This document shows positions 4,972 to 63,327 of a stretch of 64,000 nt of DNA, piece after piece. Position 1 is the stretch's first letter. Every line of letters starts with the position of its first letter. Below the pieces are notes generated by a model. It was not told where the DNA came from. It did no database searches and worked only from the letters and a program-made list of their open reading frames with translations. This DNA is from Pedobacter sp. GTDB taxonomy: Bacteria > Desulfobacterota > Desulfuromonadia > Desulfuromonadales > Syntrophotaleaceae. The translations under genes and the position numbers were made by a program. The DNA lies in assembly GCA_050253415.1 (NCBI GenBank), contig JBFWJC010000001.1, forward strand, positions 968,679 to 1,032,678. The letters are read 5' to 3'.

Positions 4972-6378
4972 ATGCTCAGAACGACCGGCTTAGGTAGCCG
5001 CAAAACCCGTATCATCGATGCCATACGAGCACAGCAGGCTATGTCGCAGTTATGCGTATGCGGCTGGGCGCGTACCGTGCGGCGCGGTAAGGATGTGACC
5101 TTTATCGCCCTGAACGACGGTTCCTGTCTGGCGAATTTGCAGGTGGTACTTACGCCGGATATGGAGGGGTTCGAAACCGTGTCGCGCTGCGGTACCGGTG
5201 CCGCCCTGGCTATCGAAGGCGATCTGGTCCCTTCACCGGCTGCCGGTCAGACCTGGGAACTGCACGCCCGCCAGGTGAAAATCCTTGGCGATACCGACGG
5301 TACTTACCCCCTGCAGAAAAAACGCCACAGCTTTGAGTTTCTGCGTTCCATCGCGCATCTGCGTCCACGGGCCAATGCCTTTGGCGCGGTGTTTCGGGTG
5401 CGCAGTGCGCTGGCCTTTGCCATTCACCGGTTTTTCCGGGAGCGTGGATTCCTGTATGTGCATACGCCGATTATCACCGCCAACGACTGCGAAGGGGCCG
5501 GGGAGATGTTTCGGGTCAGCACCCTGTCGGCGGACTGTCCGCCCATGCAGGACGGAGCGATCGACTGGCGGGAGGACTTTTTCGGGGAAAAAACCGGTCT
5601 GACAGTCAGCGGCCAGTTGCAGGGTGAGCTGTTTGCGACGGCGTTTTCCGATATCTATACCTTTGGCCCGACCTTTCGCGCTGAAAATTCCCATACCAGT
5701 CGGCATGCCGCCGAATTTTGGATGATCGAACCGGAGATGGCGTTTGCCGATCTGGCCGACGATTGCGCCCTGGCGGAAGACTTCCTGCGTTATCTGGTAC
5801 GTTTTGCCCTGAACGAATGTGCCGAGGACCTGGCTTTTTTCAACGAACGCATCGAACCGGGCCTGATCGACAAACTTGAAAAGCTCTCCAACGCCGAATT
5901 TTCCAGCATGACCTACAGCGAAGCGATTGCGCGTTTGCAGCAGGCGAAGACCGATTTTGAATTTCCTGTCAGTTGGGGTGCGGACCTGCAGTCGGAGCAC
6001 GAACGTTACCTCACCGAGCAGGTGGTTGGCGGGCCCCTGTTCGTGACCGATTATCCGGCCGACATCAAGGCCTTTTACATGCGCCTGAACGATGATGGCC
6101 GCACGGTCGCGGCCATGGATCTGTTGGTTCCGAGGGTGGGTGAAATCATCGGTGGCAGTCAGCGCGAAGAGCGGCTTGATGTGTTGCAGAACAAGATGCG
6201 TCAGGTCGGAATCGATCCCCAGCACCTGGACTGGTATCTGGATACCCGCCGCTGGGGCAGTTGTCCGCACGCCGGGTTCGGGCTTGGTTTCGAGCGATTG
6301 CTGATGTATGTGACCGGCATGGAAAACATTCGCGATGTGATACCGTTCCCGCGCACGCCGGGTAACGCACGATTCTAA
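4972..6378 (+). CDS. asnS: Asparagine--tRNA ligase
   Basis: OB-fold N-terminus, DCEGAGEMF, LTVSGQL, FGPTFRAENS, GEIIGGSQREER and PHAGFGLGFER. Confidence 0.96.
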   Translation: MLRTTGLGSRKTRIIDAIRAQQAMSQLCVCGWARTVRRGKDVTFIALNDGSCLANLQVVLTPDMEGFETVSRCGTGAALAIEGDLVPSPAAGQTWELHARQVKILGDTDGTYPLQKKRHSFEFLRSIAHLRPRANAFGAVFRVRSALAFAIHRFFRERGFLYVHTPIITANDCEGAGEMFRVSTLSADCPPMQDGAIDWREDFFGEKTGLTVSGQLQGELFATAFSDIYTFGPTFRAENSHTSRHAAEFWMIEPEMAFADLADDCALAEDFLRYLVRFALNECAEDLAFFNERIEPGLIDKLEKLSNAEFSSMTYSEAIARLQQAKTDFEFPVSWGADLQSEHERYLTEQVVGGPLFVTDYPADIKAFYMRLNDDGRTVAAMDLLVPRVGEIIGGSQREERLDVLQNKMRQVGIDPQHLDWYLDTRRWGSCPHAGFGLGFERLLMYVTGMENIRDVIPFPRTPGNARF

Positions 6379-6434
6379 ACGGCAATCTGTAAGCTGAGAC
6401 AAGTGACAGGGTTCAGACAGGAGTAGATAGCGAA

Positions 6435-6617
6435 ATGGTGGAATACAAGGTGGTGGAAACCAGTCTGGTGACGGACGATTCCCTGCAGGAGATCCTGAAC
6501 GAATGGACCTCTCGCGGGTGGCAATATGACGGCATGCAGTTTGCCATGCGTGAAGCCAGCAAGCGCCCGGCCATGGCTTTTGTGCTTTTTACCCGCGCGG
6601 CAGAAAAACAAGCTTGA
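6435..6617 (+). CDS. Small DUF4177-like protein
   Basis: EYKVV...LQEILNEWTSRGW...FTR pattern; GGAG RBS upstream. Confidence 0.7.
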   Translation: MVEYKVVETSLVTDDSLQEILNEWTSRGWQYDGMQFAMREASKRPAMAFVLFTRAAEKQA

Positions 6618-6621
6618 GACC

Positions 6622-6798
6622 TCAGTCGTCCCAATTCTCCTCGTCGCGATAGATGATGGTTTTCTTGGGGTCTGAGGACGGAGAGGCACCGCAGAATTCA
6701 CATGCCGGCACCACCGGTTCGTCATCCAGGATTTCCTCGTAGGTCAGTTCAATCGGTTCGCCGGTGCAGGTGCAATACCATTTGCGATAGACGGTCAT
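6622..6798 (-). CDS. 58-aa Cys-rich (CxC...CxxC) hypothetical protein, absent from the ORF track
   Basis: Manual translation MTVYRKWYCTCTGEPIELTYEEILDDEPVVPACEFCGASPSSDPKKTIIYRDEENWDD; AAGGAG RBS precedes the ATG. Confidence 0.65.
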   Translation of the reverse strand: MTVYRKWYCTCTGEPIELTYEEILDDEPVVPACEFCGASPSSDPKKTIIYRDEENWDD

Positions 6799-6885
6799 GG
6801 TGGCTCCTTGGCAACATGGGCTGTATGTTTCCGACCTGATTTATTCTCTTACTTACATCATACCTGTAAAGTGGACGCTGGCAAA

Positions 6886-6940
6886 GGGTGCTGAGTGCTG
6901 AGTCGACCCGGTGGGGTTCGATCCTCTCAGCACCCAGCCC
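6886..6940. repeat. Inverted repeat with tandem TGCTGAG heptamers downstream of trpS
   Basis: GGGTGCTGAG-TGCTGAG ... CTCAGCACCC. Confidence 0.5.
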
Positions 6941-6946
6941 TCGTCT

Positions 6947-7912
6947 TTAGTAGGCTAATCCCGTTTTTTTTCGCACCTTGCGCAGGATTTTGGAGGCTGC
7001 ATAACGAGCTTTTTGAGCGCCCTCTGCGAGGATGCCGCGCAGATGGTCTTTGTCCGCCAGTAGTTCTTCACGGCGCAGGGTAAAGGGGGCGAAAAAGTCG
7101 CGTACCGTTTCGAACAGTTCCTGCTTGACCTCGCCGTAACCGAGTCCTCCGGCCAGGTAGCGCTGACGCAGAGCTTCTTCCTGCTGTTTGTCCAGGAAAA
7201 GCCGGTAAATCTGGAAGACGTTGCAGGTGTCCGGATTTTTCGGGTCCTCGACGGGGGTGGGGTCGGTAACGATGCGCATCACCTGCTTGCGCAGGGCTTT
7301 TTCGTCGAGGAACAGGTCGATGGTGTTTTTGTAGCTTTTGCTCATCTTCTGTCCGTCGAGACCGGGGATGGTGGCGACGTTGTCATCGATATCCGGCTCA
7401 GGGACTACCAGTACCTCACCGTATTCGTTGTTGAATTTGATGGCGATGTCGCGGGCCACTTCCAGATGTTGTTTTTGATCCTTGCCGACCGGCACCAGCT
7501 CACCCCCGTACAGCAGAATATCGGCAGCCATCAGTACCGGATAGGCGAACAGGCCGTGGTTGGGTGCAATGCCTTTGGCGACTTTGTCCTTGTAGCTGTG
7601 GCAGCGTTCCAGTAGCCCCATGGGGGTGAAATTGGACAGGGCCCAGGTCAGTTCCTGTACTTCCGGCACGTCGGATTGTACCCAGAATACGCTTTTTCCC
7701 GGATCGAGCCCCAACGCCAGGAAGTTGGCCGCAGCTTCAAGAGTGCCTTTGGCGAGCGCCTTGCCGTCCGGCACGCTGGTCATGGCGTGGTAGTTGGCGA
7801 TGAAGCAGAACAGCTCATGGTGTTCCTGATAGTCGATCATTTTCTTCATCATGCCGAAATAATTGCCCAGGTGCAAAGAACCGGAAGGCTGGATGCCTGA
7901 AAGAACGCGCAT
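6947..7912 (-). CDS. trpS: Tryptophan--tRNA ligase
   Basis: SGIQPSGSLHLGNY (HIGH-like), AYPVLMAADIL, VPVGKDQKQHLE and KMSKS. Confidence 0.97.
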   Translation of the reverse strand: MRVLSGIQPSGSLHLGNYFGMMKKMIDYQEHHELFCFIANYHAMTSVPDGKALAKGTLEAAANFLALGLDPGKSVFWVQSDVPEVQELTWALSNFTPMGLLERCHSYKDKVAKGIAPNHGLFAYPVLMAADILLYGGELVPVGKDQKQHLEVARDIAIKFNNEYGEVLVVPEPDIDDNVATIPGLDGQKMSKSYKNTIDLFLDEKALRKQVMRIVTDPTPVEDPKNPDTCNVFQIYRLFLDKQQEEALRQRYLAGGLGYGEVKQELFETVRDFFAPFTLRREELLADKDHLRGILAEGAQKARYAASKILRKVRKKTGLAY

Positions 7913-43676: not shown

Positions 43677-43781
43677 AGTTCCTCCTGTTGGAGCTCATTA
43701 TGGCATGCCCATGCGTAAGCGTCAACGCGCTCATCATGCTTCGTGCCAACCTTTTTTACAGGTCCTGAAAGGCCCCCTGCC

Positions 43782-44702
43782 GTGGACAGCTTGATAGACC
43801 GCTTCTGCCATCATCTCGAAGTCGAGCGCAACCTGTCGCCGCATACCTTGCGTGCCTACCGCCAGGATCTGACCGAATTCGCACGATTTCTCAGCAACGA
43901 TGCAGACACGAAAGGGGGGGCGCCACACACGGTTTCCCTTCGTCAGGTTGATACCCTTGTGTTGCGTCGTTATCTGGCCCGTTTGCACAAGACCAACCGC
44001 AGGACCAGCATCGGTCGTAAACTTTCAGCCGTGCGCAGCTTTTTCCGCTATTTTGTCCGCCAGGGGGAACTGGAGGTCAATCCTGCCGAAACGATCTCTA
44101 CACCGAAACGGGAACATTATCTGCCCAAGGTATTGACCGTGGACGAGGTGTTCGACCTGATCAAGGCCGCCGATGGCGGCGAGCCGTTGACGGTACGCGA
44201 TCGGGCTATCCTGGAGCTGTTCTACTCCAGCGGACTGCGGGTAGGGGAGCTGGCGGGGCTCGATGTCGGTCATCTCGATCTGCGCGAGGGGCTGGTCAGG
44301 GTCAGGGGCAAGGGTGACAAAGAGCGTATCGTGCCCATGGGCCGGCCGGCCCGGCAGGCGCTCGGACGGTATCTGACCGAGCGCGGTGCTCCCGATCGCG
44401 TTCAACCCCTGTTTCTCAATTATCGCGGCGGGCGCCTGTCTGCCCGCAGCATCGAGCGCAATCTCAAAAAATGGTTGCTGCGCGCCGGGATCCTTAAGGA
44501 CGCCTCGCCCCACGCCTTGCGGCATTCCTTCGCTACCCATCTGCTCGATGGCGGCGCTGACCTGCGCGCCATTCAGGAACTGCTCGGTCATGCCTCCTTA
44601 TCCACTACCCAGAAATATACCCAGGTCAGCCTCGATCGGTTGATGGATGTTTATGATCGCGCCCATCCGCGAGGGCGCAAAAAAGATCGTAACGAGGAAT
44701 AA
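43782..44702 (+). CDS. xerC: Tyrosine recombinase XerC
   Basis: SPHTLRAY, RDRAILE, GLRVGE, GKGDKER, HALRHSFATHLL and LGHASLSTTQKYT. Confidence 0.88.
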   Translation: MDSLIDRFCHHLEVERNLSPHTLRAYRQDLTEFARFLSNDADTKGGAPHTVSLRQVDTLVLRRYLARLHKTNRRTSIGRKLSAVRSFFRYFVRQGELEVNPAETISTPKREHYLPKVLTVDEVFDLIKAADGGEPLTVRDRAILELFYSSGLRVGELAGLDVGHLDLREGLVRVRGKGDKERIVPMGRPARQALGRYLTERGAPDRVQPLFLNYRGGRLSARSIERNLKKWLLRAGILKDASPHALRHSFATHLLDGGADLRAIQELLGHASLSTTQKYTQVSLDRLMDVYDRAHPRGRKKDRNEE

Positions 44703-50193: not shown

Positions 50194-51060
50194 TTAATCG
50201 TGCCCGGTCAGGCGATAGTAGGCGTGGGGATGCAACCGTTTGACGATTTTATCCGCCAGCGGCGCAAACCATATCCGCGTCGGAATCCGTACGATGGAAA
50301 GTCCCAGTTCTTCTTTATATTGGCATAAACCTGGCGCCTCTCGGGCGTGAAGGCCATGCACGATCTCACTAATCGATCCTGAGCGGCGGCAGACCTGTAC
50401 CCAATCGAAAAACAATCCGAGGCTGATGTTGGTTTTCAGGTATTGCGAATGCAGAAACAGATCGTCCACATAAGCGGTTGCGCCGACCGCATAGCTGGTC
50501 AGGTAGCCTCCAAGTTTACCGTCCACCATCCCGCCAATGACAAGGGCTTTTTTCGACTCAAAGTATCGCCTTATCTGATCCCGGTATCCGCTGCGCGTGG
50601 GAACTCTGCCGTAACGGTTTCGGGCATGGGCCGAACAGAGGATGTCATACCCCTGGTCAAGAAGCAGACCCGGTTCTTGCAATGCGACAATACGAACCTG
50701 TGTGCGGAGTTTGCGCAGCTTGTTTCGGCAGCGGCCACTGAGGGTTTGCAAGGTGTAGCCGGACACGTCGGTGAGCAGGTGCAGCGGCATGCTGCCATTG
50801 GCCTTGCCGGCATCCGCAGGGTGCAGGGAGGTTCGAAATCCCCAGCATAGTGCATTGGGGCAGGTCGCTTCATCCAGGCTCATTCTGGCCATGTGATGTG
50901 TTGCGACATAGAAACCTGGATACCTTGCCCACCAGTACCGCCCCTTGTGGCGGATAATCTTTTCCCCCCTGAGAATCAGCCAGTCGGCAAGTTCTCTCTC
51001 GGTCATTGAAGCCAGCGATGCTTCCGTCGCATCTTTGAATCCGTGGCTGGAGACATTCAT
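50194..51060 (-). CDS. FemAB/GNAT-fold (Acetyltransf_6-like) protein
   Basis: LSGRCRNKLRK and GLCQYKEELG resemble Fem/GNAT signatures; central DGKLGGY strand. Confidence 0.55.
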   Translation of the reverse strand: MNVSSHGFKDATEASLASMTERELADWLILRGEKIIRHKGRYWWARYPGFYVATHHMARMSLDEATCPNALCWGFRTSLHPADAGKANGSMPLHLLTDVSGYTLQTLSGRCRNKLRKLRTQVRIVALQEPGLLLDQGYDILCSAHARNRYGRVPTRSGYRDQIRRYFESKKALVIGGMVDGKLGGYLTSYAVGATAYVDDLFLHSQYLKTNISLGLFFDWVQVCRRSGSISEIVHGLHAREAPGLCQYKEELGLSIVRIPTRIWFAPLADKIVKRLHPHAYYRLTGHD

Positions 51061-51175
51061 ATCGTCCTACCTCCCGCTTTCGGCATCGGGCTCGTATGTT
51101 CCCGGGGCATGCAAGGCTCTGCCTCGATTACGGCCGGAAAGGACAGGTTGGCACAATCTCACGCACATCCGTGTC

Positions 51176-51820
51176 TCAGCTATCATGCTGATTAATGGCA
51201 TACAGGGATGTTTCTCCAAAATATCCCAGCCAATTTGCCAGGCCAACGAGTTTAAAACCGTCTTCATACAAGTGGTAATAAGGTATGGTTATCCCCATTA
51301 TGTCGGACATGCCGTCGACAGCGATGGACAGAAAGAAAAAACCTAATGCCAGCGCCAGCGTGATGAAGTTAGTTTTGAGGATGGTTTTCCTGAAGTACAT
51401 CAGGTAAATATAGATCATGGAACCATAGGTCACGAAAATATATCTTTGCCGCCAATGAAAAATTTGGGGGAAGACTCTTTCGTGCAACAGAAACAAATCG
51501 TCCAGCAGGAGCAGACTGGTGATAAGACCGGATATGAGGAAAAACTTCGCCATTTTCCCAGTGTCTTTACTTTTGAAAATAAAAAATGAAAAGAAACATA
51601 TGGCTGCAGTCGCACACCAGAAGAGAATGGCTATGTTTGAGACGACTCCCAAAAAAGGTGAGGAATTGGTAATGTCGGCCGGATCCCTGGTGAACATGGC
51701 AATCGGCGTACCGCTGTGGTTGCTTACCAAAAAAACCGTCAGCAGTAGCAGCCAGCAGGGAATGTACAGGCTTAAGAGTAATTTAACCGATGCTGGCAGT
51801 TTTAACATGGGAAATTTCAT
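51176..51820 (-). CDS. Polytopic membrane protein of unknown function
   Basis: About 6 hydrophobic segments with intramembrane acidic motifs LLDDLFLLHE and EDGFK. Confidence 0.75.
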   Translation of the reverse strand: MKFPMLKLPASVKLLLSLYIPCWLLLLTVFLVSNHSGTPIAMFTRDPADITNSSPFLGVVSNIAILFWCATAAICFFSFFIFKSKDTGKMAKFFLISGLITSLLLLDDLFLLHERVFPQIFHWRQRYIFVTYGSMIYIYLMYFRKTILKTNFITLALALGFFFLSIAVDGMSDIMGITIPYYHLYEDGFKLVGLANWLGYFGETSLYAINQHDS

Positions 51821-51983
51821 GACCGCCCTTATTGAGAAAGATTGTCATCATTGCATGGTTTCGTTGCCCTGGCTCGTCTCCTGGGACCCTGTAATGCATA
51901 GGATTTAGTAAGATTGCGCAGAGATTTTGCGTGTCAGTAAGGCATGATATTCACTGTCTGGCCATAGCTAAACAGTGAACATA

Positions 51984-52883
51984 CTAGCTTGGGGAACCCC
52001 CCGGCATCCGCACCGGGAGATAGCGCTCCTCCGCTATTTTCAATTCGTCGACATTCTGCAAGCGGAAGACCTCCTGAACCGGTGTGATCTCTTTTTCCAC
52101 CCCCATCAGCGATTGTTGTTCATGGATCAGGGCCGCGGTCTTTTGCATGGCAGCAATACTCGATCGCAGCAGGTGGTTGGCCCAGATCACTAGACTGATG
52201 CCGGCCTCTTGAAAAACCGGGGTCGGAGTCTGGTAATACTTGGTCGGCACCACTACGACGGGGCAGGTGTCCCCCCATTCATTCATGAAAGCCAGGACTT
52301 CTTCCGCGGTGGATAATTTGCTGTGGATCAGCAAGGCATCCGCTCCCGCCTTATGGTAGGCCTCGGCGCGTTTCAGGGCTTCGCCGAGCCCCCATCCGGC
52401 AATGAAGGCTTCGATTCGCGCGACCACGCAAAAATCGTCGTCCTGCTGGGTGTCCTTGGCCGCCTTGATTTTGCCGGCAAATATGTCGATGGCTTCCAAG
52501 GGCTGGCGGGCATTGTCCAATAACGAGTTATTCTTGGGGAATAGCTTGTCTTCGATGCAGGCCGCCGCGACCCCTCGTTGCTCCAGTTTTCGCACCAGTC
52601 TGCGCATATTATTGAAATTGCCGTAGCCGGTGTCGGCATCGAGCATGATCGGGATGGAGGTGGCGTCGCTCATGAATTCGATGACTTCCAGCACCTGGGT
52701 CCAGCTTGCTTCGTTGCTGTCCCGCACCCCGAGGGCCGCCGAAATGGCCAGGCCGCTGCCCCATATGCCTTTAAAGCCGGTCTCTTCGACAATTCTGGCG
52801 CTCAGACCGTTGTGGGCTTCCATGAGGAACTGCAGATCCGGCGATTGTAACAGGGCTTTGAACTGGGACGTCTTTTTTTGCAT
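51984..52883 (-). CDS. pepM: Phosphoenolpyruvate mutase
   Basis: [26 protein letters not shown] (EDKX5NS signature), IHSK, VPTKY and IWANH. Confidence 0.95.
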
Positions 52884-52909
52884 GGGAAGCCTCCGGGCGG
52901 TTGGAAGAG

Positions 52910-53875
52910 TCAAAGCGGCTGGTTTATTTTGGGCACATCGTATCCGGCCATTTGTCCCGACCGGGCGAAATTGTCGATGATGTCGATGATTCTGCGGCCG
53001 ATTTTCCGTTGGGAATCGATGGTCATAGCGCCGATGTGCGGGGTGAGAACGACATTGGGCAGGTCGGCCAGAGGGGATATCTTTTTGTCGCCCTCTGCCT
53101 GGTGCACATCGAGGGCTGCACCTCCCAGCCTTTCTTCGCGGAGGGCCTGGCTCAGGGCGACCTCATCCACGATTCCGCCTCGCGCCATGTTGAGGAGATA
53201 GCTGCCGGGTTTCATCAGGGCCAGTTCAGCGGAGCCTATGAGGTTGCTGGTCGTCGACTTCAGTGGGACGCAGGTGCAGAGGTAATCGGCGGTCGACAAA
53301 ACCGTGTGAAAATCGGTGAGGTGCATGCCCTTTTTCTTGAAATCAGCGGCGCGTTCCTCCGAGGGATGTTCGACGCAGCCCAGAACCTGCATGCCCCAGG
53401 CCAGTCCCATTTCGCCCAGCAGAGTGCCGATGTTGCCCAGCCCGACGATGCCGAGTCGCTTGTTTTCCAGCAGGTGTCCGGTCAGCTGGTGTTTGGCCCA
53501 CGTTCCTTCGCGCAGCAACCGGTCCGCGACAAGGATCTGGCGGGACAGGGCCAGCATCATGCCGAACGCCAGTTCGGCTACGGCGCGGGCCCCCGGTCCA
53601 GGAATGCGGACCAATTCAAGTTCGTTGGTGCGCAGATATTCCATGTCGATGTTGTCGAGTCCGGAACCGGCCCGGATCAGCAGCTGCAGGCCGGGAGCCT
53701 TGCTCATGAGGTCGGCGGTAATGTTTACTCCGCTTCGGAAAACCAATGCCTCCCGATCCTCTATCAGTGCCGCCAGGGTTTCCTCCCCGGCGCCGATGCC
53801 CGAAACCACATCATGCCGCCGTTGCAGGGTCTGCAGTGCTTCGGAATCGATCTGGCTTGCCAGCAGGATTTTCAT
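52910..53875 (-). CDS. D-isomer-specific 2-hydroxyacid dehydrogenase; candidate phosphonopyruvate reductase
   Basis: [39 protein letters not shown] and TPHIGA; 26 nt upstream of pepM. Confidence 0.85.
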
Positions 53876-55095
53876 TTTTCCTCCCCGAGTGCCCGGTCCG
53901 GGTCCCTTTTGCGACGTTCGCCCCGGTTGGTGAATAGCAGAGCGGAGCGCACCATGTCTCCCCAGAAGGGGCGCGGATCCGTCCATGAAAATATGGCGAA
54001 GGTCTTTTTGCCACGTACCGATTTCCGCCATTCCCTGAAGGTCAGTTCCCCCTTGCGCCAGTAATAAAAGGCTGAACGGAGGTCCTGCCGGAGATTGATC
54101 CACTTCACCCCTCGGTATTGCTGGACCCGGTTGTCGGGTAACGGCAAGCCGAGGGCGTCGCAGTACATGGTGTAAAGCAGATCGACCCCGCCGGCTTCGG
54201 CAATGGCTGACCGGCCGGTGGGGCGACAGATATTCGGCTCGACAATGAAATAGTCACCCGATCGTTGGTCGCGCTTGATTTCCATGTAAGCCAGTCCGCG
54301 AAAATCGACGCTCTGAAACAGCCGTAGTGTTTCGTTTAGAACAAAATCGTCGCGACATTCCTCGCCGAGGGAACTCTGACCCATTTCCGGGGGCCATTGG
54401 CGGAGTTTCCTGGCCACAAAGGTTGCCAGGGGTTGCGAATCTGTATTGAAATAGGCGTTGCACGAATAAAGATTGGCATCTGGGCCTTCGATCCAGTTCT
54501 GCAGGATGAAGCAGCTCGTGCCGGATTTGTACTGTTCAAACGTGGCGATCAGTTGTTCAGGCGTGGTGATTTTGAAGGCTTTGAATGCGGAGAGTTCATT
54601 CCACGCCGCGGTTCTATAGTGCGGTTTGAGGACGCAGGGAAAGGCGACCTTGTCCGTTGCAGAAATCAGGTCATCACGATTATAGATGAACCAGGTATCG
54701 GGAATGCGGAACCCGAATTTTTGTGCAAAGGCATAGAACTGCAGCTTGTCCATTAGCATTTCCACAACATCCGGTTCCGGTAGGCACAGGTGATACCAGC
54801 GGGATAGTCGTTGCCGGTTTCGCGAAACGAGCAGGACATCGGGGTCGCAGCAAGGATAAAGTACCGCCTTTTGGGACAGCTGTGCGCCGAGCCGCTCCAA
54901 CGCTTCCAACATGTTGTTGGTGGTGATGACCTGGCGGCAGCAGTTGGTGGTGCAGTAAGGGTGATCTTTGTTTTCCGAAAGGGCGATGACGGGCAGCCGG
55001 TGGCGTTTGGAAAGAATCCGGGCCGTTTGAAGGCCCTGCATGAATTCTAGGCCGGTAACGACTGCAAAAGGTCTGGTTTCTGCGGCTGCCTTCAT
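53872..55095 (-). CDS. ATP-grasp carboxylate-amine ligase (D-aspartate-ligase-like)
   Basis: DKLQFY, FPCVLKP, ILQNWIEG, RKLRQWP and MEIKRD...IVEPN; ATGA overlap with the dehydrogenase gene. Confidence 0.85.
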   Translation of the reverse strand: MKAAAETRPFAVVTGLEFMQGLQTARILSKRHRLPVIALSENKDHPYCTTNCCRQVITTNNMLEALERLGAQLSQKAVLYPCCDPDVLLVSRNRQRLSRWYHLCLPEPDVVEMLMDKLQFYAFAQKFGFRIPDTWFIYNRDDLISATDKVAFPCVLKPHYRTAAWNELSAFKAFKITTPEQLIATFEQYKSGTSCFILQNWIEGPDANLYSCNAYFNTDSQPLATFVARKLRQWPPEMGQSSLGEECRDDFVLNETLRLFQSVDFRGLAYMEIKRDQRSGDYFIVEPNICRPTGRSAIAEAGGVDLLYTMYCDALGLPLPDNRVQQYRGVKWINLRQDLRSAFYYWRKGELTFREWRKSVRGKKTFAIFSWTDPRPFWGDMVRSALLFTNRGERRKRDPDRALGEEK

Positions 55096-55360
55096 CGATT
55101 CATTCTTTCGGCAGAGGGGATGATAAACGGTCGGACGGGCGACAAGTTTGTTTCCCATATAGAAAAACCATAACGTCGGATAAATTAAAGTCAAGTTGCA
55201 GGACACGAGTCGGCCCATGGGGGGGCGGAAACACTGTGGACGGGCCCGATGGAGGTAGGCAGCGGAAACGAAGGTCTGTGAAAGATGACCCTCGATTTTA
55301 AACGCACTCTATGGCAGAATCGCCGCCGATTCGTACGCCAACCCAAAAGGATCGCACATC

Positions 55361-56164
55361 ATGGACCATCAATTGCTGGTCATCTTTTTCCTCACCTTCG
55401 TCATCCACATCATTGGCACCCTGGCCTACTCGGTGCGCATCGCCGGCACGCGTACCGGGCGCATCGCCATCTCTTTTTCCCTGTTCAATATTCTGGTGCT
55501 CGTCTCACGCCTGTCCAATTCCTTTCAGGCCCCTTTGCTGGCAAAACGGGTGGAGGAAGATCTCCTGCGTCAAAACCTGTACGGGGTGGAGGGGGATTTT
55601 CGCTGGTTGTTGTTTGCCGCGACCCTGGCGACATTGGCCGGCGCGATGCTGATTCCGACCTTTCAGCGACTTTTCGCCAGAGCCGTGGAGAGTTTTGGCG
55701 CCTCGCGGTCGCTACCGAAAATGCTGCTGCGGGTCATCAGTCCGGCAGGTATGGCTCATCTTTGCAATGCGGTGGTTCTGCCCGCCAGGGAGAATGTCAC
55801 CAGAGCCTGGAAGGGGGAAAGGATGTCGCTGCGCATAGCAATCCTGAATACGGTCGCCATGGGCGTGTGGACCGTAGGTGTGTTTGCTTCCCTTTATGCC
55901 GGGTATCTCCACCCGGACCTTCGCAGCACGGCCAACAGTCTCTCGTCGGTTGTCAACGGGGCGGCGACCATTCTGATGTTCATCATCATCGATCCGTATC
56001 TGTCCATCCTTACCGATGACGTGGCCGGAGGAAGGGCGGGGGAAGCTTACTTTCGGCGATCCATCGTCTGGTTTGTCGGAAGCAGGTTGGCCGGCACCTT
56101 GCTGGCCCAGGCTTTTCTGGTGCCGGCGGCGCATTTCATCGTGTTTGTGGCCGATAAAATTTAA
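55361..56164 (+). CDS. amj: Lipid II flippase, Amj family (DUF2837)
   Basis: TLAYSVRIAG, SLFNILVLVSR..N.FQAP, IPTFQR, LSSVVNG.ATI...IIDP and RLAGTLLAQ. Confidence 0.88.
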   Translation: MDHQLLVIFFLTFVIHIIGTLAYSVRIAGTRTGRIAISFSLFNILVLVSRLSNSFQAPLLAKRVEEDLLRQNLYGVEGDFRWLLFAATLATLAGAMLIPTFQRLFARAVESFGASRSLPKMLLRVISPAGMAHLCNAVVLPARENVTRAWKGERMSLRIAILNTVAMGVWTVGVFASLYAGYLHPDLRSTANSLSSVVNGAATILMFIIIDPYLSILTDDVAGGRAGEAYFRRSIVWFVGSRLAGTLLAQAFLVPAAHFIVFVADKI

Positions 56165-56314
56165 CCATGGCGAAAGGCTGACAAGCATGATTGGTCATGC
56201 CGGATCCGGGACTGTCAATTCCGGCAAAGGGCATGTGTTTTTTTTGGAAGGGCATTAAATCCGAATCGACCTGATATACTCGATAGAAACGTTCCGGATA
56301 AAGGAGGTGTCTCC

Positions 56315-56485
56315 ATGACCGGGAAAGATATCGGGATCAACGTAGCGGATGGTTCAGCGTTAAAAAAGGTCGCGTTTGAAACTGTGATCGGTGCCGACCG
56401 GCCCTACTATTGGAGCTGGTACCGAATCGTTTTTGAGGAACCGGAAACCCCGGCGGGAGAGCCTGTAAAAACCCCACCCAACTAG
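56315..56485 (+). CDS. 56-aa hypothetical protein, absent from the ORF track
   Basis: Perfect AAGGAGGT SD; MTGKDIGINVADGSALKKVAFETVIGADRPYYWSWYRIVFEEPETPAGEPVKTPPN. Confidence 0.55.
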   Translation: MTGKDIGINVADGSALKKVAFETVIGADRPYYWSWYRIVFEEPETPAGEPVKTPPN

Positions 56486-56530
56486 TTTTGGCCTGGCAAA
56501 ACGAGCCCTCCGCGGTCATGGGAAAAGGTT

Positions 56531-59376: not shown

Positions 59377-62300
59377 CTATTTGATACCAAAGGTGACGCG
59401 GTGCCCCTCCCCGGGTACTTTGGGCGCTTCGACGCTGATGCGGCTTTCCAGTTCCGGCTGCACGGCGATGAAAGCCTCTCTCAGATGACGGGCCCGTTCC
59501 AGTGCAAGTTGTTCAAGGGCATTGTCGTCCTTGGGATAGTGTTGACGGATGGCCTCCATCATTTCCTGCGGCGGCAATTTCCGGATCATGCCTATGAAGT
59601 TTTTCGGCTTGTCAAAAGGTTGTTCGGCATACACATCAAACAGTAGATCCGCGTATTCATCGGCATCCACCTCGGGGCTGATCTGCAGTTCCTGCGGTTT
59701 GATCCGGTCGCGCTCTTGCCTGGGCAGGTCGGCATGCTTGATCTCTTGCATGCGTCGTAGCGCATAGGCATCCGCCAGCATTGCACGATCTTCCTCATCG
59801 GCCTGGGGGATGAGCACCAGATTGATTTTGGGGCGAGACATCAGCATGTCGGCTACGGTTTCTACCGTCTTGAGATCTTGGTCAGGAAGGCGTCCTTCCC
59901 CCGGATCAAAAGCGATGTATTCGAGCCCTTGTTCTCCGCTCCCCATGATCCCGCCGAGAAACATGAAGGGCGAGGCCACCGCTTTTATAAGCAGATTGGC
60001 GATGACCTTGAACACCAGGCCGCCGACGCTGAAACTCGGGTCGTCCAGATCGCCGCGCACCGGCAGAGTGAGGTTGATGTTGCCGGCGGTATCCTGCAGC
60101 AGGCTTACCCCCAGCTTGACAGGTAAATTGGGGGCATCGGGAGATTTTATCTTGTCCCCCAATTCCAGGCTGTCGAGTCTGATCTTGTGAGTGGAGTCAA
60201 GCTTGCCCCTGTCGATGGAGATCCTGCTGTCGAGAGAGAAGCTTCCCTGCTCCAGCGGATAGGCGATAAAACGCTCGGATATGGGGGAAATCCGCGTCAG
60301 ATCCAGAGTCTTGAGGCTGGCCTGTAATTCGGCGGCGACATCCGCATGCAGGGGGTTCATGGTCCCTTCCCCCTTGATCGGAGCATCATTCAGCTCGCCT
60401 GAGAAAACAATTCTGGATTGTCTTTCCGGGGTGTTACGCAACTCCCCGACGGTAACCTTCAGTTTTTCAAGGCGGTTGGTTACGGCGGGTTTGTAGCGCC
60501 GGTCGCGCATCACCATGGTGCCATTGATGATCTCCACGCCACCGATACGCAGATACGGGGTGGAAGCTGTTTTGTTTTTTTTCACGGTTTGAGAACGAGC
60601 CGCAGGTGGTTTCGTTGTTGTGGTGGGCTGTTTACCGAGCAGCCTTGCCAGGTTGTTGGTTCCGTCGTTGCTCACGATCAGGTTGATATTCGGGCGAGTC
60701 AGTGTCACTTTGCCCGCGCTATAGCGCTGTCGGGCTGTATTGATATCGAGATCCCGAATGCGCAGGGTGCGTATCGCGGCAAACTCTTGTTTGCCGTCGA
60801 GCACCGATAAGGACTCAAGAGAGGCCTGCCCGCGGATCCTCAGCCGGTTTTTAGCGGTGTCTTTCAGGTCGGTCTGCAGCGCCAGGGTCAGGGTACCGGC
60901 GCCAAGCCGCAACGCCGGGTTGACCTGTCCTAACAGGGGGGAAAACGGTTTGAGATTGAGTCTGGTTGTGCGAACGCTCAGGTTCATGGCAAGGGGGGTA
61001 AGGGTCCCCTTGCCGTCGATGCGCAGGGTTCCCCCTTGTTTTTCCTGTCCGCTAAGGTCGATGTTCAGGGGCGGATTGACTGCCGAGTCGTAGCCGGTCA
61101 CACTGCCGCTCAGATTCTGAAAAGTCGCGTTCGAGGTTTCCCTCGGGCCTTCCAGCCTGACGCTTACCTGTCCGTTCGCAAGCTTCAACTCCGCCAGCTG
61201 CGTCTGCCAGGGCTTGCCCGGTTTTGGCGCATCCGTCCCGGTACTTCGGGCCGCTGCGGAAGGACGCAGTTGTAAAAGATCGATGGTCCCCTTGCGGTCG
61301 CGGCGCAGGCGCAGGTTCGGCTGGTCCAGGAGCAGTTGTCGCACCTCCAGGCGATGCGCCGGGACATCGACGGTCAATCCAGCAAGCGCCAGGTTTCCCA
61401 TCTGGAAGAAGACTTTGCCGGTGTCGTTGCGCAGCAATGACAGCTCCTGCAGATGCGCTTCCCCCTGTTTAAAAAAGATCGCCAGCTCCTCTTGATTCTC
61501 AGCTATGTCCAGACGACCGGCGCCGGAGAATACGCCCTTTTGGAGCGTCACCGGAATGCCGCTGTCCGCCATATACGGTTGGAAATCGGCGATGGGCAGG
61601 TCATCGAGGCGCAGTAGGATGTTTCCCTGCAGAGGGCTCGCCAGCAGCTTGCCTTCCAGGGAAAGGTGACCCGCGTCGTTGAGAGTCAGACTTGCCTTCA
61701 GCTCGGCGGGTTCGGTGCCGGGCAGGTCCAGATCGGTAAGGGTCAGAGCGATCTGTTCCGCCCGGGCCTGGAAACCGCTCTTGACTGTCCGGTCACGCCA
61801 CAGAACGCGAGCCTCGCGAAGCGTAAAGAGTTTCAGGTGCAGCGGCAGGTGGGGCTGCTGGTTTGCCGCCTGAGCCGGCTCTTGTTTGGCGGTGGTTTTT
61901 TTTAACCAGGTCTGCCAGTCGATGCGCCCGTCCTCGAGCCGTGCCAGATGGGCTTCCAGACCCTGCATATCCACCTTTTTAAGGGTCAACCCTTCAGGCG
62001 TGTTGAGGGATCCTTCCAGACCCACCGTCAGTCGTGGCAGCCGCAGCGCTTGATCGCCGTTTGGAGCCAGCACCTCGAGTTCGGTCAGGGTCAGTTGACC
62101 GCCAAGCCCCAGACGGATGCCGGTTTCAGGCTGTTGGCGCATGCTGAAGACCAGGTTTGTTTTTAATTGGCCGTTGTTGAGGGTGGCGCTGGTGAAGGGC
62201 TGTACATAGGGTTGAAAGCGTACCAGGTCCAGGTTGTCGAGGCGGATATCGAACTCGGTATGCAGTTGCTCGGCAAAGGGTGCCAATCGACCATCCACCC

Positions 62301-62976
62301 GCAGCAGTCGGTCGTTGATGACCGCTTTCAGGTAAGGGGTGATGGAGCGTTCCCGATGGCGTTTCAGGGTGGAGGTGAAGGGTGCGTAAAATTCCAGCTC
62401 CGCTACCGTATGTTCCGTTTCACGGATATCGTCGCGAAAATGAAGCAAGCCGCCGGAGATCTCCAGGTCGGTGAGCATCACTCCGAACAGGTTCCATTCC
62501 TGCTCCTCAGTAGCGGATTTATCCGGCTGTGGTTGCTGTGTGCCGTCAGGCGAAGCCTCCTGCGGCACCGGTGCCAGGTCGGCCAGGGAGAGGGTGCCAT
62601 CCTTGCGCAGCCGCATCTCGAGGTGCGGACTGGTTAACTTCAGGTCGCTTAAAACCGGCGCCAGGCGGTAGATGCCCGCCGGACTGACGCGCACCTCAAA
62701 GCGCTCCAGGTTGAAGCACTCCTCACCGTCGGGCAGCGGGATGCGCAGATTCTCCGCCGTCAAACGCAGGGTGAAGGGATTGAAACGTACTTTTTCCAGA
62801 GTACAGGTGCTGCCGAGTTTTGCGGAAAGCTGCTGCTCGGTCACATGGCGGATAATCGGCGGCAGGACCAGGCCGGCTGCCACGGCCCACAGGGCGATAA
62901 ATCCTGCTGTCCAGAGAGCGATGCGGCGCATGTTCTGTTTTTGTTTGGGAGTGAATACTGCGAGTCGATTTATCAT
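59377..62976 (-). CDS. DUF748 (AsmA-like) protein with a C-terminal OmpA-like region
   Basis: N-terminal TM, RFNPFTL, repeated beta-rich units, LPVKL..LLQD..G.I.L.LPV.GDL.DP.FS and LALERA. Confidence 0.85.
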   Translation of the reverse strand: MINRLAVFTPKQKQNMRRIALWTAGFIALWAVAAGLVLPPIIRHVTEQQLSAKLGSTCTLEKVRFNPFTLRLTAENLRIPLPDGEECFNLERFEVRVSPAGIYRLAPVLSDLKLTSPHLEMRLRKDGTLSLADLAPVPQEASPDGTQQPQPDKSATEEQEWNLFGVMLTDLEISGGLLHFRDDIRETEHTVAELEFYAPFTSTLKRHRERSITPYLKAVINDRLLRVDGRLAPFAEQLHTEFDIRLDNLDLVRFQPYVQPFTSATLNNGQLKTNLVFSMRQQPETGIRLGLGGQLTLTELEVLAPNGDQALRLPRLTVGLEGSLNTPEGLTLKKVDMQGLEAHLARLEDGRIDWQTWLKKTTAKQEPAQAANQQPHLPLHLKLFTLREARVLWRDRTVKSGFQARAEQIALTLTDLDLPGTEPAELKASLTLNDAGHLSLEGKLLASPLQGNILLRLDDLPIADFQPYMADSGIPVTLQKGVFSGAGRLDIAENQEELAIFFKQGEAHLQELSLLRNDTGKVFFQMGNLALAGLTVDVPAHRLEVRQLLLDQPNLRLRRDRKGTIDLLQLRPSAAARSTGTDAPKPGKPWQTQLAELKLANGQVSVRLEGPRETSNATFQNLSGSVTGYDSAVNPPLNIDLSGQEKQGGTLRIDGKGTLTPLAMNLSVRTTRLNLKPFSPLLGQVNPALRLGAGTLTLALQTDLKDTAKNRLRIRGQASLESLSVLDGKQEFAAIRTLRIRDLDINTARQRYSAGKVTLTRPNINLIVSNDGTNNLARLLGKQPTTTTKPPAARSQTVKKNKTASTPYLRIGGVEIINGTMVMRDRRYKPAVTNRLEKLKVTVGELRNTPERQSRIVFSGELNDAPIKGEGTMNPLHADVAAELQASLKTLDLTRISPISERFIAYPLEQGSFSLDSRISIDRGKLDSTHKIRLDSLELGDKIKSPDAPNLPVKLGVSLLQDTAGNINLTLPVRGDLDDPSFSVGGLVFKVIANLLIKAVASPFMFLGGIMGSGEQGLEYIAFDPGEGRLPDQDLKTVETVADMLMSRPKINLVLIPQADEEDRAMLADAYALRRMQEIKHADLPRQERDRIKPQELQISPEVDADEYADLLFDVYAEQPFDKPKNFIGMIRKLPPQEMMEAIRQHYPKDDNALEQLALERARHLREAFIAVQPELESRISVEAPKVPGEGHRVTFGIK

Positions 62977-63327
62977 ATCTTTATCCTTTTGGTGATATCG
63001 CACAGGATAGGTTGGAAACGCAGTTTAAGTCTATCGAAGAGATGTAACAGGGCAATGTTAAAAGGAGTGGAATCGGTAAGTAGAATGGGACCGGCCGGGA
63101 TACACTTAGTGTGACACGGGGTTGGAGATAACGACGAGACCGACGACCATAGTTGGCTGTCCTTATGCAAATGCAGCATTATTTTGCAGGTTCACCAAAA
63201 AAATAAAAAACTAACGCATGTAATAGCGATGTGTTACCCACGGTTGATACGCTTGCGATATATTTCCCGTAAACATCGGCACCCACGTCCTGCGAAAAGG
63301 TGCGAAAACGACACGGAGGTATAGTTA

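Follow-up and report, generated by a model that had tools for sequence, protein, structure and literature searches.

We have analysed a stretch of 64,000 nucleotides (the window) of contig JBFWJC010000001.1 in the GenBank assembly GCA_050253415.1 (positions 968,679 to 1,032,678, forward strand), which is deposited as Pedobacter sp. and falls into the Syntrophotaleaceae of the order Desulfuromonadales in the GTDB lineage. The window contains a run of five minus-strand genes, which in the order of transcription encode an ATP-grasp ligase, a D-2-hydroxyacid dehydrogenase (hereafter the reductase), a phosphoenolpyruvate (PEP) phosphomutase (PepM), an integral membrane protein with about six transmembrane helices (the 6-TM protein) and a tandem-GNAT protein (Table 1). 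These five genes are a functional unit, portable and self-contained, which we refer to as the cassette. An initial annotation, made from the letters of the sequence, had placed these five genes and a divergent Amj-family gene here, and open reading frames (ORFs) were found for all six at the positions that it gave. It had also described the ligase and the reductase as coupled, which can be read in the sequence: the ligase stop and the reductase ATG overlap in ATGA, preceded by GGAGG. An alternative TTG start of pepM at 52913 overlaps the reductase stop. Homologues of the ligase align from about residue 37-50 of its longest ORF and not before, and the later start given in Table 1 is therefore the probable one.

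Table 1. Genes of the cassette and its divergent neighbour, in window coordinates.
Gene product	Coordinates	Strand	Remarks
ATP-grasp ligase	53872..55218	-	longest ORF 448 aa; probable true start ATG 55095, giving 407 aa
D-2-hydroxyacid dehydrogenase, PGDH-like short form, 321 aa	52910..53875	-	PF02826 and PF00389; putative phosphonopyruvate reductase
PepM (PEP phosphomutase)	51984..52883 from ATG (ORF to 52913)	-	TIGR02320
Integral membrane protein, about 6 TM helices, 214 aa, unnamed family	51176..51820	-	all-helical AlphaFold model
Fem/MprF/Sba18-type tandem-GNAT protein, 288 aa	50194..51060	-	assigned by fold; putative aminoacyl-tRNA-dependent aminoacyl transferase
Amj-family gene	55361..56164	+	PF10997; divergent from ligase; lineage-specific neighbour outside the conserved cassette

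The five genes occur in identical order in six genomes of the order, namely that of the window and those carrying the loci L007/L030, L008, L009/L027, L025 and L026 (L numbers denote loci and G numbers genomes). The same order is also found on one metagenome contig (L038), and part of it on three contig fragments (L036, L037 and L087). The surroundings of the cassette vary. One flank carries PEP carboxylase in four genomes, a methyltransferase gene in L025 and other genes in L027. On the other flank we found Amj followed by a GGDEF gene (window and L008), a GGDEF gene directly (L030), an AsmA/DUF748 gene (L026 and L038), or Sir2 together with AsmA (L025). Co-conservation of the ATP-grasp and Fem-like genes with pepM holds in all six full cassettes. 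PEP carboxylase, the convergent neighbour in the window, was considered as a functional partner and rejected because this flank is lost in L025 and L027.

The assignment of PepM is secure. The protein scores 400.8 bits against the equivalog model TIGR02320 (cut-off 319.55; NCBIfam), which confirms the identity proposed initially, and matches PEP_mutase of Pfam with an E value of 5.7e-63, whereas the rival NCBIfam models for phosphonopyruvate hydrolase and methylisocitrate lyase both remain under their cut-offs. Its translation contains the string [10 protein letters not shown], an instance of EDKxxxxxNS, which we take to be the active-site motif of PEP phosphomutase. It is the one PepM above cut-off in the window's genome, which is 100% complete by marker genes.

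The reductase matches 2-Hacid_dh_C (PF02826, E = 1.7e-51) and 2-Hacid_dh (PF00389, E = 1.3e-18) in Pfam; its top NCBIfam model is phosphoglycerate dehydrogenase (PGDH), at 240 bits and thus below the cut-off of 454. The gene lies between those for the ligase and PepM in all six cassettes. Phosphonopyruvate decarboxylase (Ppd) was searched for genome-wide and none was above cut-off, the best thiamine diphosphate (ThDP) enzyme scoring 31.1 bits against the 312.5 required. Thus, the reductase has what characterizes the VlpB type: a 2-Hacid_dh fold, a place next to pepM and a genome without phosphonopyruvate decarboxylase. According to the flavophos preprint, the equilibrium of PepM is unfavourable and a downstream enzyme must pull it. 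Since the genome has no decarboxylase, reduction of phosphonopyruvate to phosphonolactate by the reductase, for which the cassette offers no other candidate, is likely to provide this pull, which supports the initially proposed route from PepM and a PGDH-like reductase to phosphonolactate. The window was also said to show no decarboxylase, aminotransferase or cytidylyltransferase; this was borne out by a scan of 46 window ORFs (outside the locus, greedy picks of at least 110 aa), among which there is no aminotransferase, nucleotidyltransferase, glycosyltransferase or Wzx, and for Ppd by the genome-wide search.

The open frame of the reductase runs 76 codons upstream of its ATG (window 52910-54103), where it overlaps the ligase C-terminus out of frame, and this extension aligns in close relatives. 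We rejected it as a real N-terminus because the distant homologues in L010 and L012 begin at the ATG; the extension is probably a by-product of the conserved ligase coding sequence. In two contigs of metagenome-assembled genomes (MAGs; L009/L027 and L010), the reductase homologue is split over two frames, by either a frameshift or an assembly indel.

By itself, the ligase matches no Pfam family and gives only weak ATP-grasp matches in NCBIfam. A profile of 30 members of its family places it in the ATP-grasp superfamily: in the PDB, this profile matches the large chain of carbamoyl-phosphate synthetase (E = 1.6e-14, profile positions 19-313), DdlB (4e-11), cyanophycin synthetase (9e-10), and also RimK and LysX. 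Membership in Ddl/VanA is not indicated, with 13 bits against a cut-off of 550 for D_ala_D_lac and 12.4 against 243 for PRK01372 (NCBIfam). The family is large, comprising 7460 representatives at E values of 1e-3 or better and 807 at 1e-30 or better. Matches at 1e-40 or better were found in 8 of 401 sampled genomes of the phylum, and in none of the seven non-self Desulfobacterota loci fetched from these matches is pepM present. Five of the seven (L117, L119, L120, L121 and L122) make up the annotated set, with L118 and L123 outside it, and all five are polysaccharide loci with Wza, Bac_transf, DegT, polysaccharide deacetylases, GT2/GT4 glycosyltransferases, and FemAB or Acetyltransf_6 genes. 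Among 45 long relatives of the ligase that were scanned for fusions, Polysacc_deac_1 is present in seven and a glycosyltransferase in four. Further fusion partners are a thymidylate-kinase-like P-loop domain (5), Acetyltransf_1 (2), a methyltransferase (1) and Acetyltransf_6 (1, in a protein 53% identical to the window ligase), and 21 of the relatives have no Pfam match.

Hidden Markov models (HMMs) of the Fem-type and 6-TM families matched neither domain in the 150 best ligase relatives, and the C-terminal halves of the ligase fusions of about 800 aa are therefore something else. These halves show weak signals of HprK-related or FomB-like kinases (E values from 1e-5 to 4e-3, far under the cut-offs). 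Close relatives with 44-57% identity (P0224, P0225, P0232, P0237, P0221, P0226 and P0231, and L012 at 5118-6985) are often fused to or beside such an HprK-related/FomB-like domain, the signals being equally weak and far under the cut-offs, together with a dTMP-kinase-like P-loop. These kinase-like partners hint at a phosphorylation of the phosphonate or of a glycan, a step that the window cassette would lack.

Outside the order, the ligases nearest to that of the window (46-55% identity) are for the most part associated with phosphonate genes. In L012 (Bacteroidota), one run comprises Wzc, FemAB, the reductase, PepM, the HprK-like and dTMP-kinase-like genes, the ligase, FemAB/Acetyltransf_6, an unknown gene and GT4. 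L010 holds a PhyH gene, a fusion of PepM with a nucleotidyltransferase (NTP_transf_3), Ppd, an aminotransferase, Wzx, the ligase, the two-frame reductase, a CDP-alcohol phosphatidyltransferase and an LPG_synthase_C gene. In L011, the ligase stands with Wzx and a CDP-alcohol phosphatidyltransferase, and PepM is encoded at a different place of the genome; in L039, the 6-TM protein, PepM and the ligase are found together. Positions 141-9755 of L010, which comes from a gammaproteobacterial MAG, thus carry a full route to aminoethylphosphonate (AEP) beside the ligase homologue and a 2-Hacid_dh gene, and two phosphonate branches may meet there in one product.

The 288-aa protein encoded by the last gene of the cassette has no sequence match in Pfam (at E values of 0.01 or better), NCBIfam or the PDB. 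Its AlphaFold model (pLDDT 93.9) is a tandem GNAT, and structural comparison with VIA places it nearest to Sba18/Sbb17 (Z = 17.8-18.1), which have the same length, followed by FemX (16.1-16.7) and MprF/aaPGS (13-15). Single GNATs score 13 or below, and the tandem GNATs VipF, MAB_4324 and mycothiol synthase, which use acyl-CoA, also match (11.6-14.1). In Foldseek, the top matches are synthase domains of MprF/aaPGS (E values from 3e-10 to 7e-10). The alignments to Fem-type enzymes cover about 230-250 residues at 7-14% identity. The protein shares the tandem-GNAT fold with FemX/FemABX, the MprF synthase domain and Sba18/Sbb17 at Z scores of 13-18 but differs from FemA-sized proteins (FemX/FemA chains, 335-400 aa) in having no coiled-coil insert. 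Among 27 relatives, Acetyltransf_6 was detected in 4 (best E = 4.9e-06) and Acetyltransf_1 weakly in 5, while FemAB (PF02388) and LPG_synthase_C were found neither in these 27 nor in the window protein (Pfam). It is closer to solved members of the Fem/MprF/Sba18 type than to other GNATs, so the Fem/GNAT-like label of the initial annotation agrees with the fold. From its modelled structure, we infer that the protein uses aminoacyl-tRNA to transfer an aminoacyl group.

The cassette is patchily distributed. Its tandem-GNAT family was found in 12 of 201 sampled genomes of the order. We fetched regions of 12.8-20 kb from nine of the eleven genomes other than that of the window; the remaining two, G164 and G184, are represented by short contigs only. 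The cassette was found in G004, G070, G014 and G057, and in G125 via L008. Members in G015, G026, G120 and G090 and second copies in G057 and G125 have no pepM nearby. Such paralogues (36-51% identity) in L028, L031 and L035 are accompanied by Wzc, Wza, a WbpM-like dehydratase, Bac_transf, DegT, GT4, Wzx and a sulfotransferase, and these loci also hold further FemAB/Acetyltransf_6 genes and other ATP-grasps. L029 is an exception, its paralogue lying beside type IV pilus genes. In L028 (9384-11240; G015), two copies of the tandem-GNAT gene, 51% and 43% identical to the window protein, stand in tandem beside the sulfotransferase within the Wzc/Wza/WbpM-like locus.

The 214-aa 6-TM protein is present in every cassette. 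Its AlphaFold model (pLDDT 86.2) is an all-helical bundle of about six helices, and D107, D108, H113, S165 and K190 are invariant in its family. It matches no family in Pfam or NCBIfam, the atlas gave unnamed clusters only, and a Pfam search of 29 family members found no family common to more than one of them. Foldseek returned nothing from the PDB at E values of 1e-3 or better, and the best match in a wide VIA search (Z = 8.9, GPCR-like helix bundles) lies within the stated noise of helical proteins. A predicted complex of the 6-TM and Fem-type proteins scored 0.00 against a mark of 0.32, in a run made without controls. The five invariant residues (Asp-Asp-His-Ser-Lys) would suit a catalytic or binding site better than a transporter. 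A trio of an ATP-grasp, a 6-TM relative and FemAB is found without pepM in L061, next to DegT, and in L108 and L109, where UDP-GlcNAc 2-epimerase and radical-SAM genes are its neighbours.

We propose, with a probability of about 0.45, that the cassette makes phosphonolactate, combines it with a tRNA-derived amino acid in a conjugate with amide or ester linkage, and decorates a surface glycan or a membrane lipid. PepM, identified by its family membership, would turn PEP into phosphonopyruvate, and the PGDH-like reductase would reduce this to 2-hydroxy-3-phosphonopropanoate, as suggested by its gene position, the absent decarboxylase and the VlpB precedent. Judged by its fold, the tandem-GNAT protein would then take an aminoacyl group from aminoacyl-tRNA and attach it to phosphonolactate or to the acceptor, at an amine or a hydroxyl. 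By an amide or ester bond, the ATP-grasp ligase would link phosphonolactate, through its carboxylate or hydroxyl, to this amino acid or to the sugar, and the 6-TM protein might anchor or present a membrane-bound acceptor, or might export the product. The whole process would take place at the cytoplasmic membrane.

As acceptor, we consider most likely a surface glycan, with attachment at an amino sugar or uronic acid of an exopolysaccharide or a polymer of the lipopolysaccharide type, or, less likely, a lipid, made by genes elsewhere in the genome. A glycan is favoured because relatives of the two tailoring enzymes, ligase and transferase, either belong to polysaccharide loci or form fusions with polysaccharide enzymes, and the cell envelope, already named as the target in the initial annotation, is thus favoured by the genomic contexts of relatives. 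More tentatively, the cassette can be described as a plug-in module for an undescribed decoration, in which an N- or O-phosphonolactyl group with a linker of a tRNA-derived amino acid would be placed on a surface amino-sugar or lipid via an ATP-grasp amide or ester rather than as a CMP-activated phosphonoester.

Several observations weigh against decoration of the surface. None of the six genomes has the cassette within a polysaccharide locus, and the cassette contains no glycosyltransferase, flippase or nucleotidyltransferase. By the PDB titles, the top fold match of the transferase, Sba18/Sbb17, has a small-molecule antibiotic precursor as its substrate. Relatives of the 6-TM protein mostly have unrelated neighbours: among 80 metagenome loci, many of them on short contigs, pepM occurs in 5 and a window-like ligase in 5. 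Furthermore, the ligase of L117, which is 48.8% identical to that of the window, belongs to a genome (G229) that is 100% complete and has no PepM, and the ligase subfamily is therefore not strictly phosphonate-specific.

Some of these observations would fit the main alternative, a less likely small-molecule cluster, in which the ligase and the tRNA-dependent transferase extend phosphonolactate to a secreted phosphonopeptide or depsipeptide, perhaps a Trojan-horse antimetabolite, and the 6-TM protein serves as exporter or in self-protection. The unit is self-contained, has no glycan genes and stands in non-polysaccharide surroundings in six genomes, and the closest folds to its transferase are tRNA-dependent peptide synthases of an antibiotic pathway with the same length. 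Phosphonopeptide clusters usually contain ATP-grasp ligases and tRNA-dependent transferases, with dehydrophos and fosfazinomycin as precedents. Where ATP-grasp genes stand beside ppm, Li and Horsman conclude that a peptide is formed, and phosphonolactate has been isolated from the spent medium of the valinophos producer (both PMC8942020). However, the relatives of both enzymes point to polysaccharides, as described above, and the 6-TM protein matches no exporter family, its invariant set appearing to be catalytic or binding.

Decoration of the surface could also take the special form of a phosphono-lipid, which we regard as improbable. The Fem/MprF-like and 6-TM proteins would then be a split aminoacyl-lipid synthase of the MprF type, and the ATP-grasp enzyme would cap the amine to give an anionic N-phosphonolactyl-aminoacyl lipid. 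This possibility draws on the MprF/aaPGS synthase domains at the top of the Foldseek matches, on the small membrane protein encoded directly upstream of the transferase in every cassette, and on L010 and L011, in which the ligase is paired with a CDP-alcohol phosphatidyltransferase, and in L010 also with an LPG_synthase_C gene. On the other hand, LPG_synthase_C is not matched by the window protein or its 27 relatives, MprF ranks below Sba18 and FemX by VIA Z score, the 6-TM protein has no similarity to the membrane domain of MprF, and the contexts of the paralogues indicate glycans, not lipids.

The initial annotation had proposed that phosphonolactate is ligated to a lipid-linked peptidoglycan precursor, much as D-Asp ligases and Fem enzymes act, and flipped by Amj, giving a phosphonate-decorated wall. 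The Amj-family assignment is sound, at 319.9 bits against a Pfam cut-off of 27 (PF10997, E = 1.5e-95). Nevertheless, Amj is above cut-off in only 2 of the 201 genomes of the order, the window's genome (G000) and G125, which belong to the same genus, and no Amj was found in the other four cassette carriers, G004, G057 and G070 (99-100% complete) and G014 (65%). It is missing from the cassette loci L025, L026 and L027, and in L030 the ligase and the GGDEF gene are immediate neighbours without an intervening Amj; in the window, the order is a GGDEF-HDOD gene, Amj and the cassette (55219-56530). Because four carriers lack it, the cassette does not need Amj. The window's genome also has MurJ (437 bits), and a dedicated Amj flippase therefore finds no support. 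The original proposal had staked itself on the conservation of both amj and the Fem-like gene with pepM, which is the case for the Fem-like gene and not for amj. Since the two carriers are in one genus, Amj is probably a lineage-specific insertion beside the cassette, acquired in a single event in one sub-lineage. A small chance of an accessory role is left to it because, rare as it is, it lies beside the cassette both times.

Decoration of peptidoglycan itself is very unlikely. The folds most similar to the transferase include that of FemX, whose substrate is a peptidoglycan precursor, and the rare Amj gene stands directly beside the cassette in both genomes having it, divergent from the ligase gene at a distance of 142-265 bp. 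Yet no Mur, Ddl or other peptidoglycan or stem-peptide gene is linked in any annotated locus, the relatives lie in polysaccharide loci of the Wzx/Wza/Wzc type, and a lipid II acceptor is not supported. The suggested parallel to VanH/VanA stands in its general logic, in which a 2-keto-acid reductase is followed by an ATP-grasp enzyme that could use the new hydroxy-acid, and the same two superfamilies are involved. Family membership does not follow: the vanH models reach 78.3 bits (vanH_gen) or less against cut-offs of 540 or more, the Ddl/VanA models are also far under theirs, and the nearest solved ATP-grasp by profile is carbamoyl-phosphate synthetase rather than Ddl/VanA.

Scarcely credible is a purely metabolic role, in which free phosphonolactate or a simple derivative would dispose of excess PEP and the other three genes would be unrelated neighbours: a 2012 paper on Pelobacter carbinolicus proposes the shedding of glycolytic intermediates via PepM and a PGDH-like gene (PMC3543383), and genes of PEP carboxylase and PPDK are nearby in the window, but the order of the five genes is kept through all changes of flank, ligase and reductase are translationally coupled, and the adjacency of PEP carboxylase is not maintained in two of the loci (L025 and L027).

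The remainder of the window is housekeeping, including RF3, tRNA synthetases, Lon, PolA, PPDK and PEP carboxylase among others. A promoter scan gave 3 sites against 3.7 expected, a terminator scan gave 14 against 7.6 ± 2.1 expected with none at a trustworthy gene end, and Rfam gave no match at E values of 0.1 or better. A gene for a tyrosine recombinase of the XerC/XerD type (window 43743-44702) lies about 5.5 kb from the cassette, separated from it by a gene for a GSDH-like beta-propeller protein, a Methyltransf_24 gene and PEP carboxylase. On the other side of the locus is the gene of a 1208-aa AsmA/DUF748 protein (59377-63003), whose homologue adjoins or nearly adjoins the ligase gene in L025, L026 and L038, and this synteny may reflect nothing beyond shared ancestry. 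AsmA-like proteins are related to envelope lipids.

Among known systems, the valinophos pathway of Streptomyces durhamensis has its first branch point in common with the cassette: a 2-Hacid_dh reductase (VlpB), not a decarboxylase, follows PepM, and phosphonolactate is the first committed product. This VlpB-type branch appears in the catalogue of Li and Horsman (PMC8942020), and the flavophos preprint also refers to it. Unlike valinophos, the cassette has no counterpart to the rest of the vlpABCDE core toward dihydroxypropylphosphonate (the composition of the core following in part PMC8942020), and its remaining genes are those of the ATP-grasp, 6-TM and Fem-type proteins. No gene resembling a kinase or an aldehyde dehydrogenase was found in the cassette or the scanned window ORFs. 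The host is also an anaerobic member of the Desulfuromonadales and not an actinomycete, and the likeness to VlpB is one of gene family and position.

Tailoring of the PntC/LicC type with AEP (Rice et al. 2019, PMC6697681) likewise directs a PepM-derived phosphonate to a surface glycan or lipid, and L010 joins a PepM-nucleotidyltransferase fusion, Ppd and an aminotransferase with a ligase homologue. The window cassette differs in having no decarboxylase, aminotransferase or nucleotidyltransferase (there is no NTP_transferase in the cassette or the 46 ORFs), and attachment would proceed via the carboxylate or hydroxyl of phosphonolactate, not as a phosphonoester from a CMP-activated donor. Nucleotidyl activation dominates the surface phosphonate tailoring known so far (PMC6697681). 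Uncharacterised pairs of ATP-grasp and FemAB genes in polysaccharide loci provide a further comparison, with members of the ligase family (28-49% identity) beside FemAB/Acetyltransf_6, DegT, deacetylases and glycosyltransferases. These pairs are mostly without PepM, whereas the window cassette is detached from polysaccharide loci and brings its own acid-making enzymes.

The statement that no such system had been described needs to be narrowed. The pair of PepM and reductase was already flagged for the genus in the 2012 genome paper (PMC3543383), with the homologues Pcar_0628 and Pcar_0629 in Syntrophotalea carbinolica DSM 2380, and the VlpB-type branch had been catalogued in turn. A further cassette-gene homologue, Pcar_0627, is also named in this strain, which is cultured and non-pathogenic. 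Among the open-access papers and preprints searched (PMC8942020 with its main text), there was none on a phosphonolactyl glycan, lipid or peptide or on this combination of genes. Literature matches to phosphonolactyl, phosphonolactic and the systematic name were, by the titles listed, all on adducts or inhibitors of ThDP enzymes. The main text of PMC8942020 mentions neither Pelobacter nor Syntrophotalea; according to this paper, phosphonolactate is known only from the spent medium mentioned above.

If the proposal is correct, a conjugate derived from phosphonolactate by five genes would be a new branch of carbon-phosphorus biochemistry, and the phosphonolactate branch would thereby have its first cell-bound product. 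To our knowledge, the surface phosphonates described so far carry AEP, hydroxyethylphosphonate or methylphosphonate groups. Genome mining by the first branch-point enzyme would file the cassette as VlpB-like and thereby miss that the rest of the valinophos pathway is absent. The proposal would also provide the first substrate assignment for a widespread and unstudied pair of polysaccharide-tailoring genes, an ATP-grasp and a Fem-like gene that are sometimes accompanied by a 6-TM gene, in many phyla.

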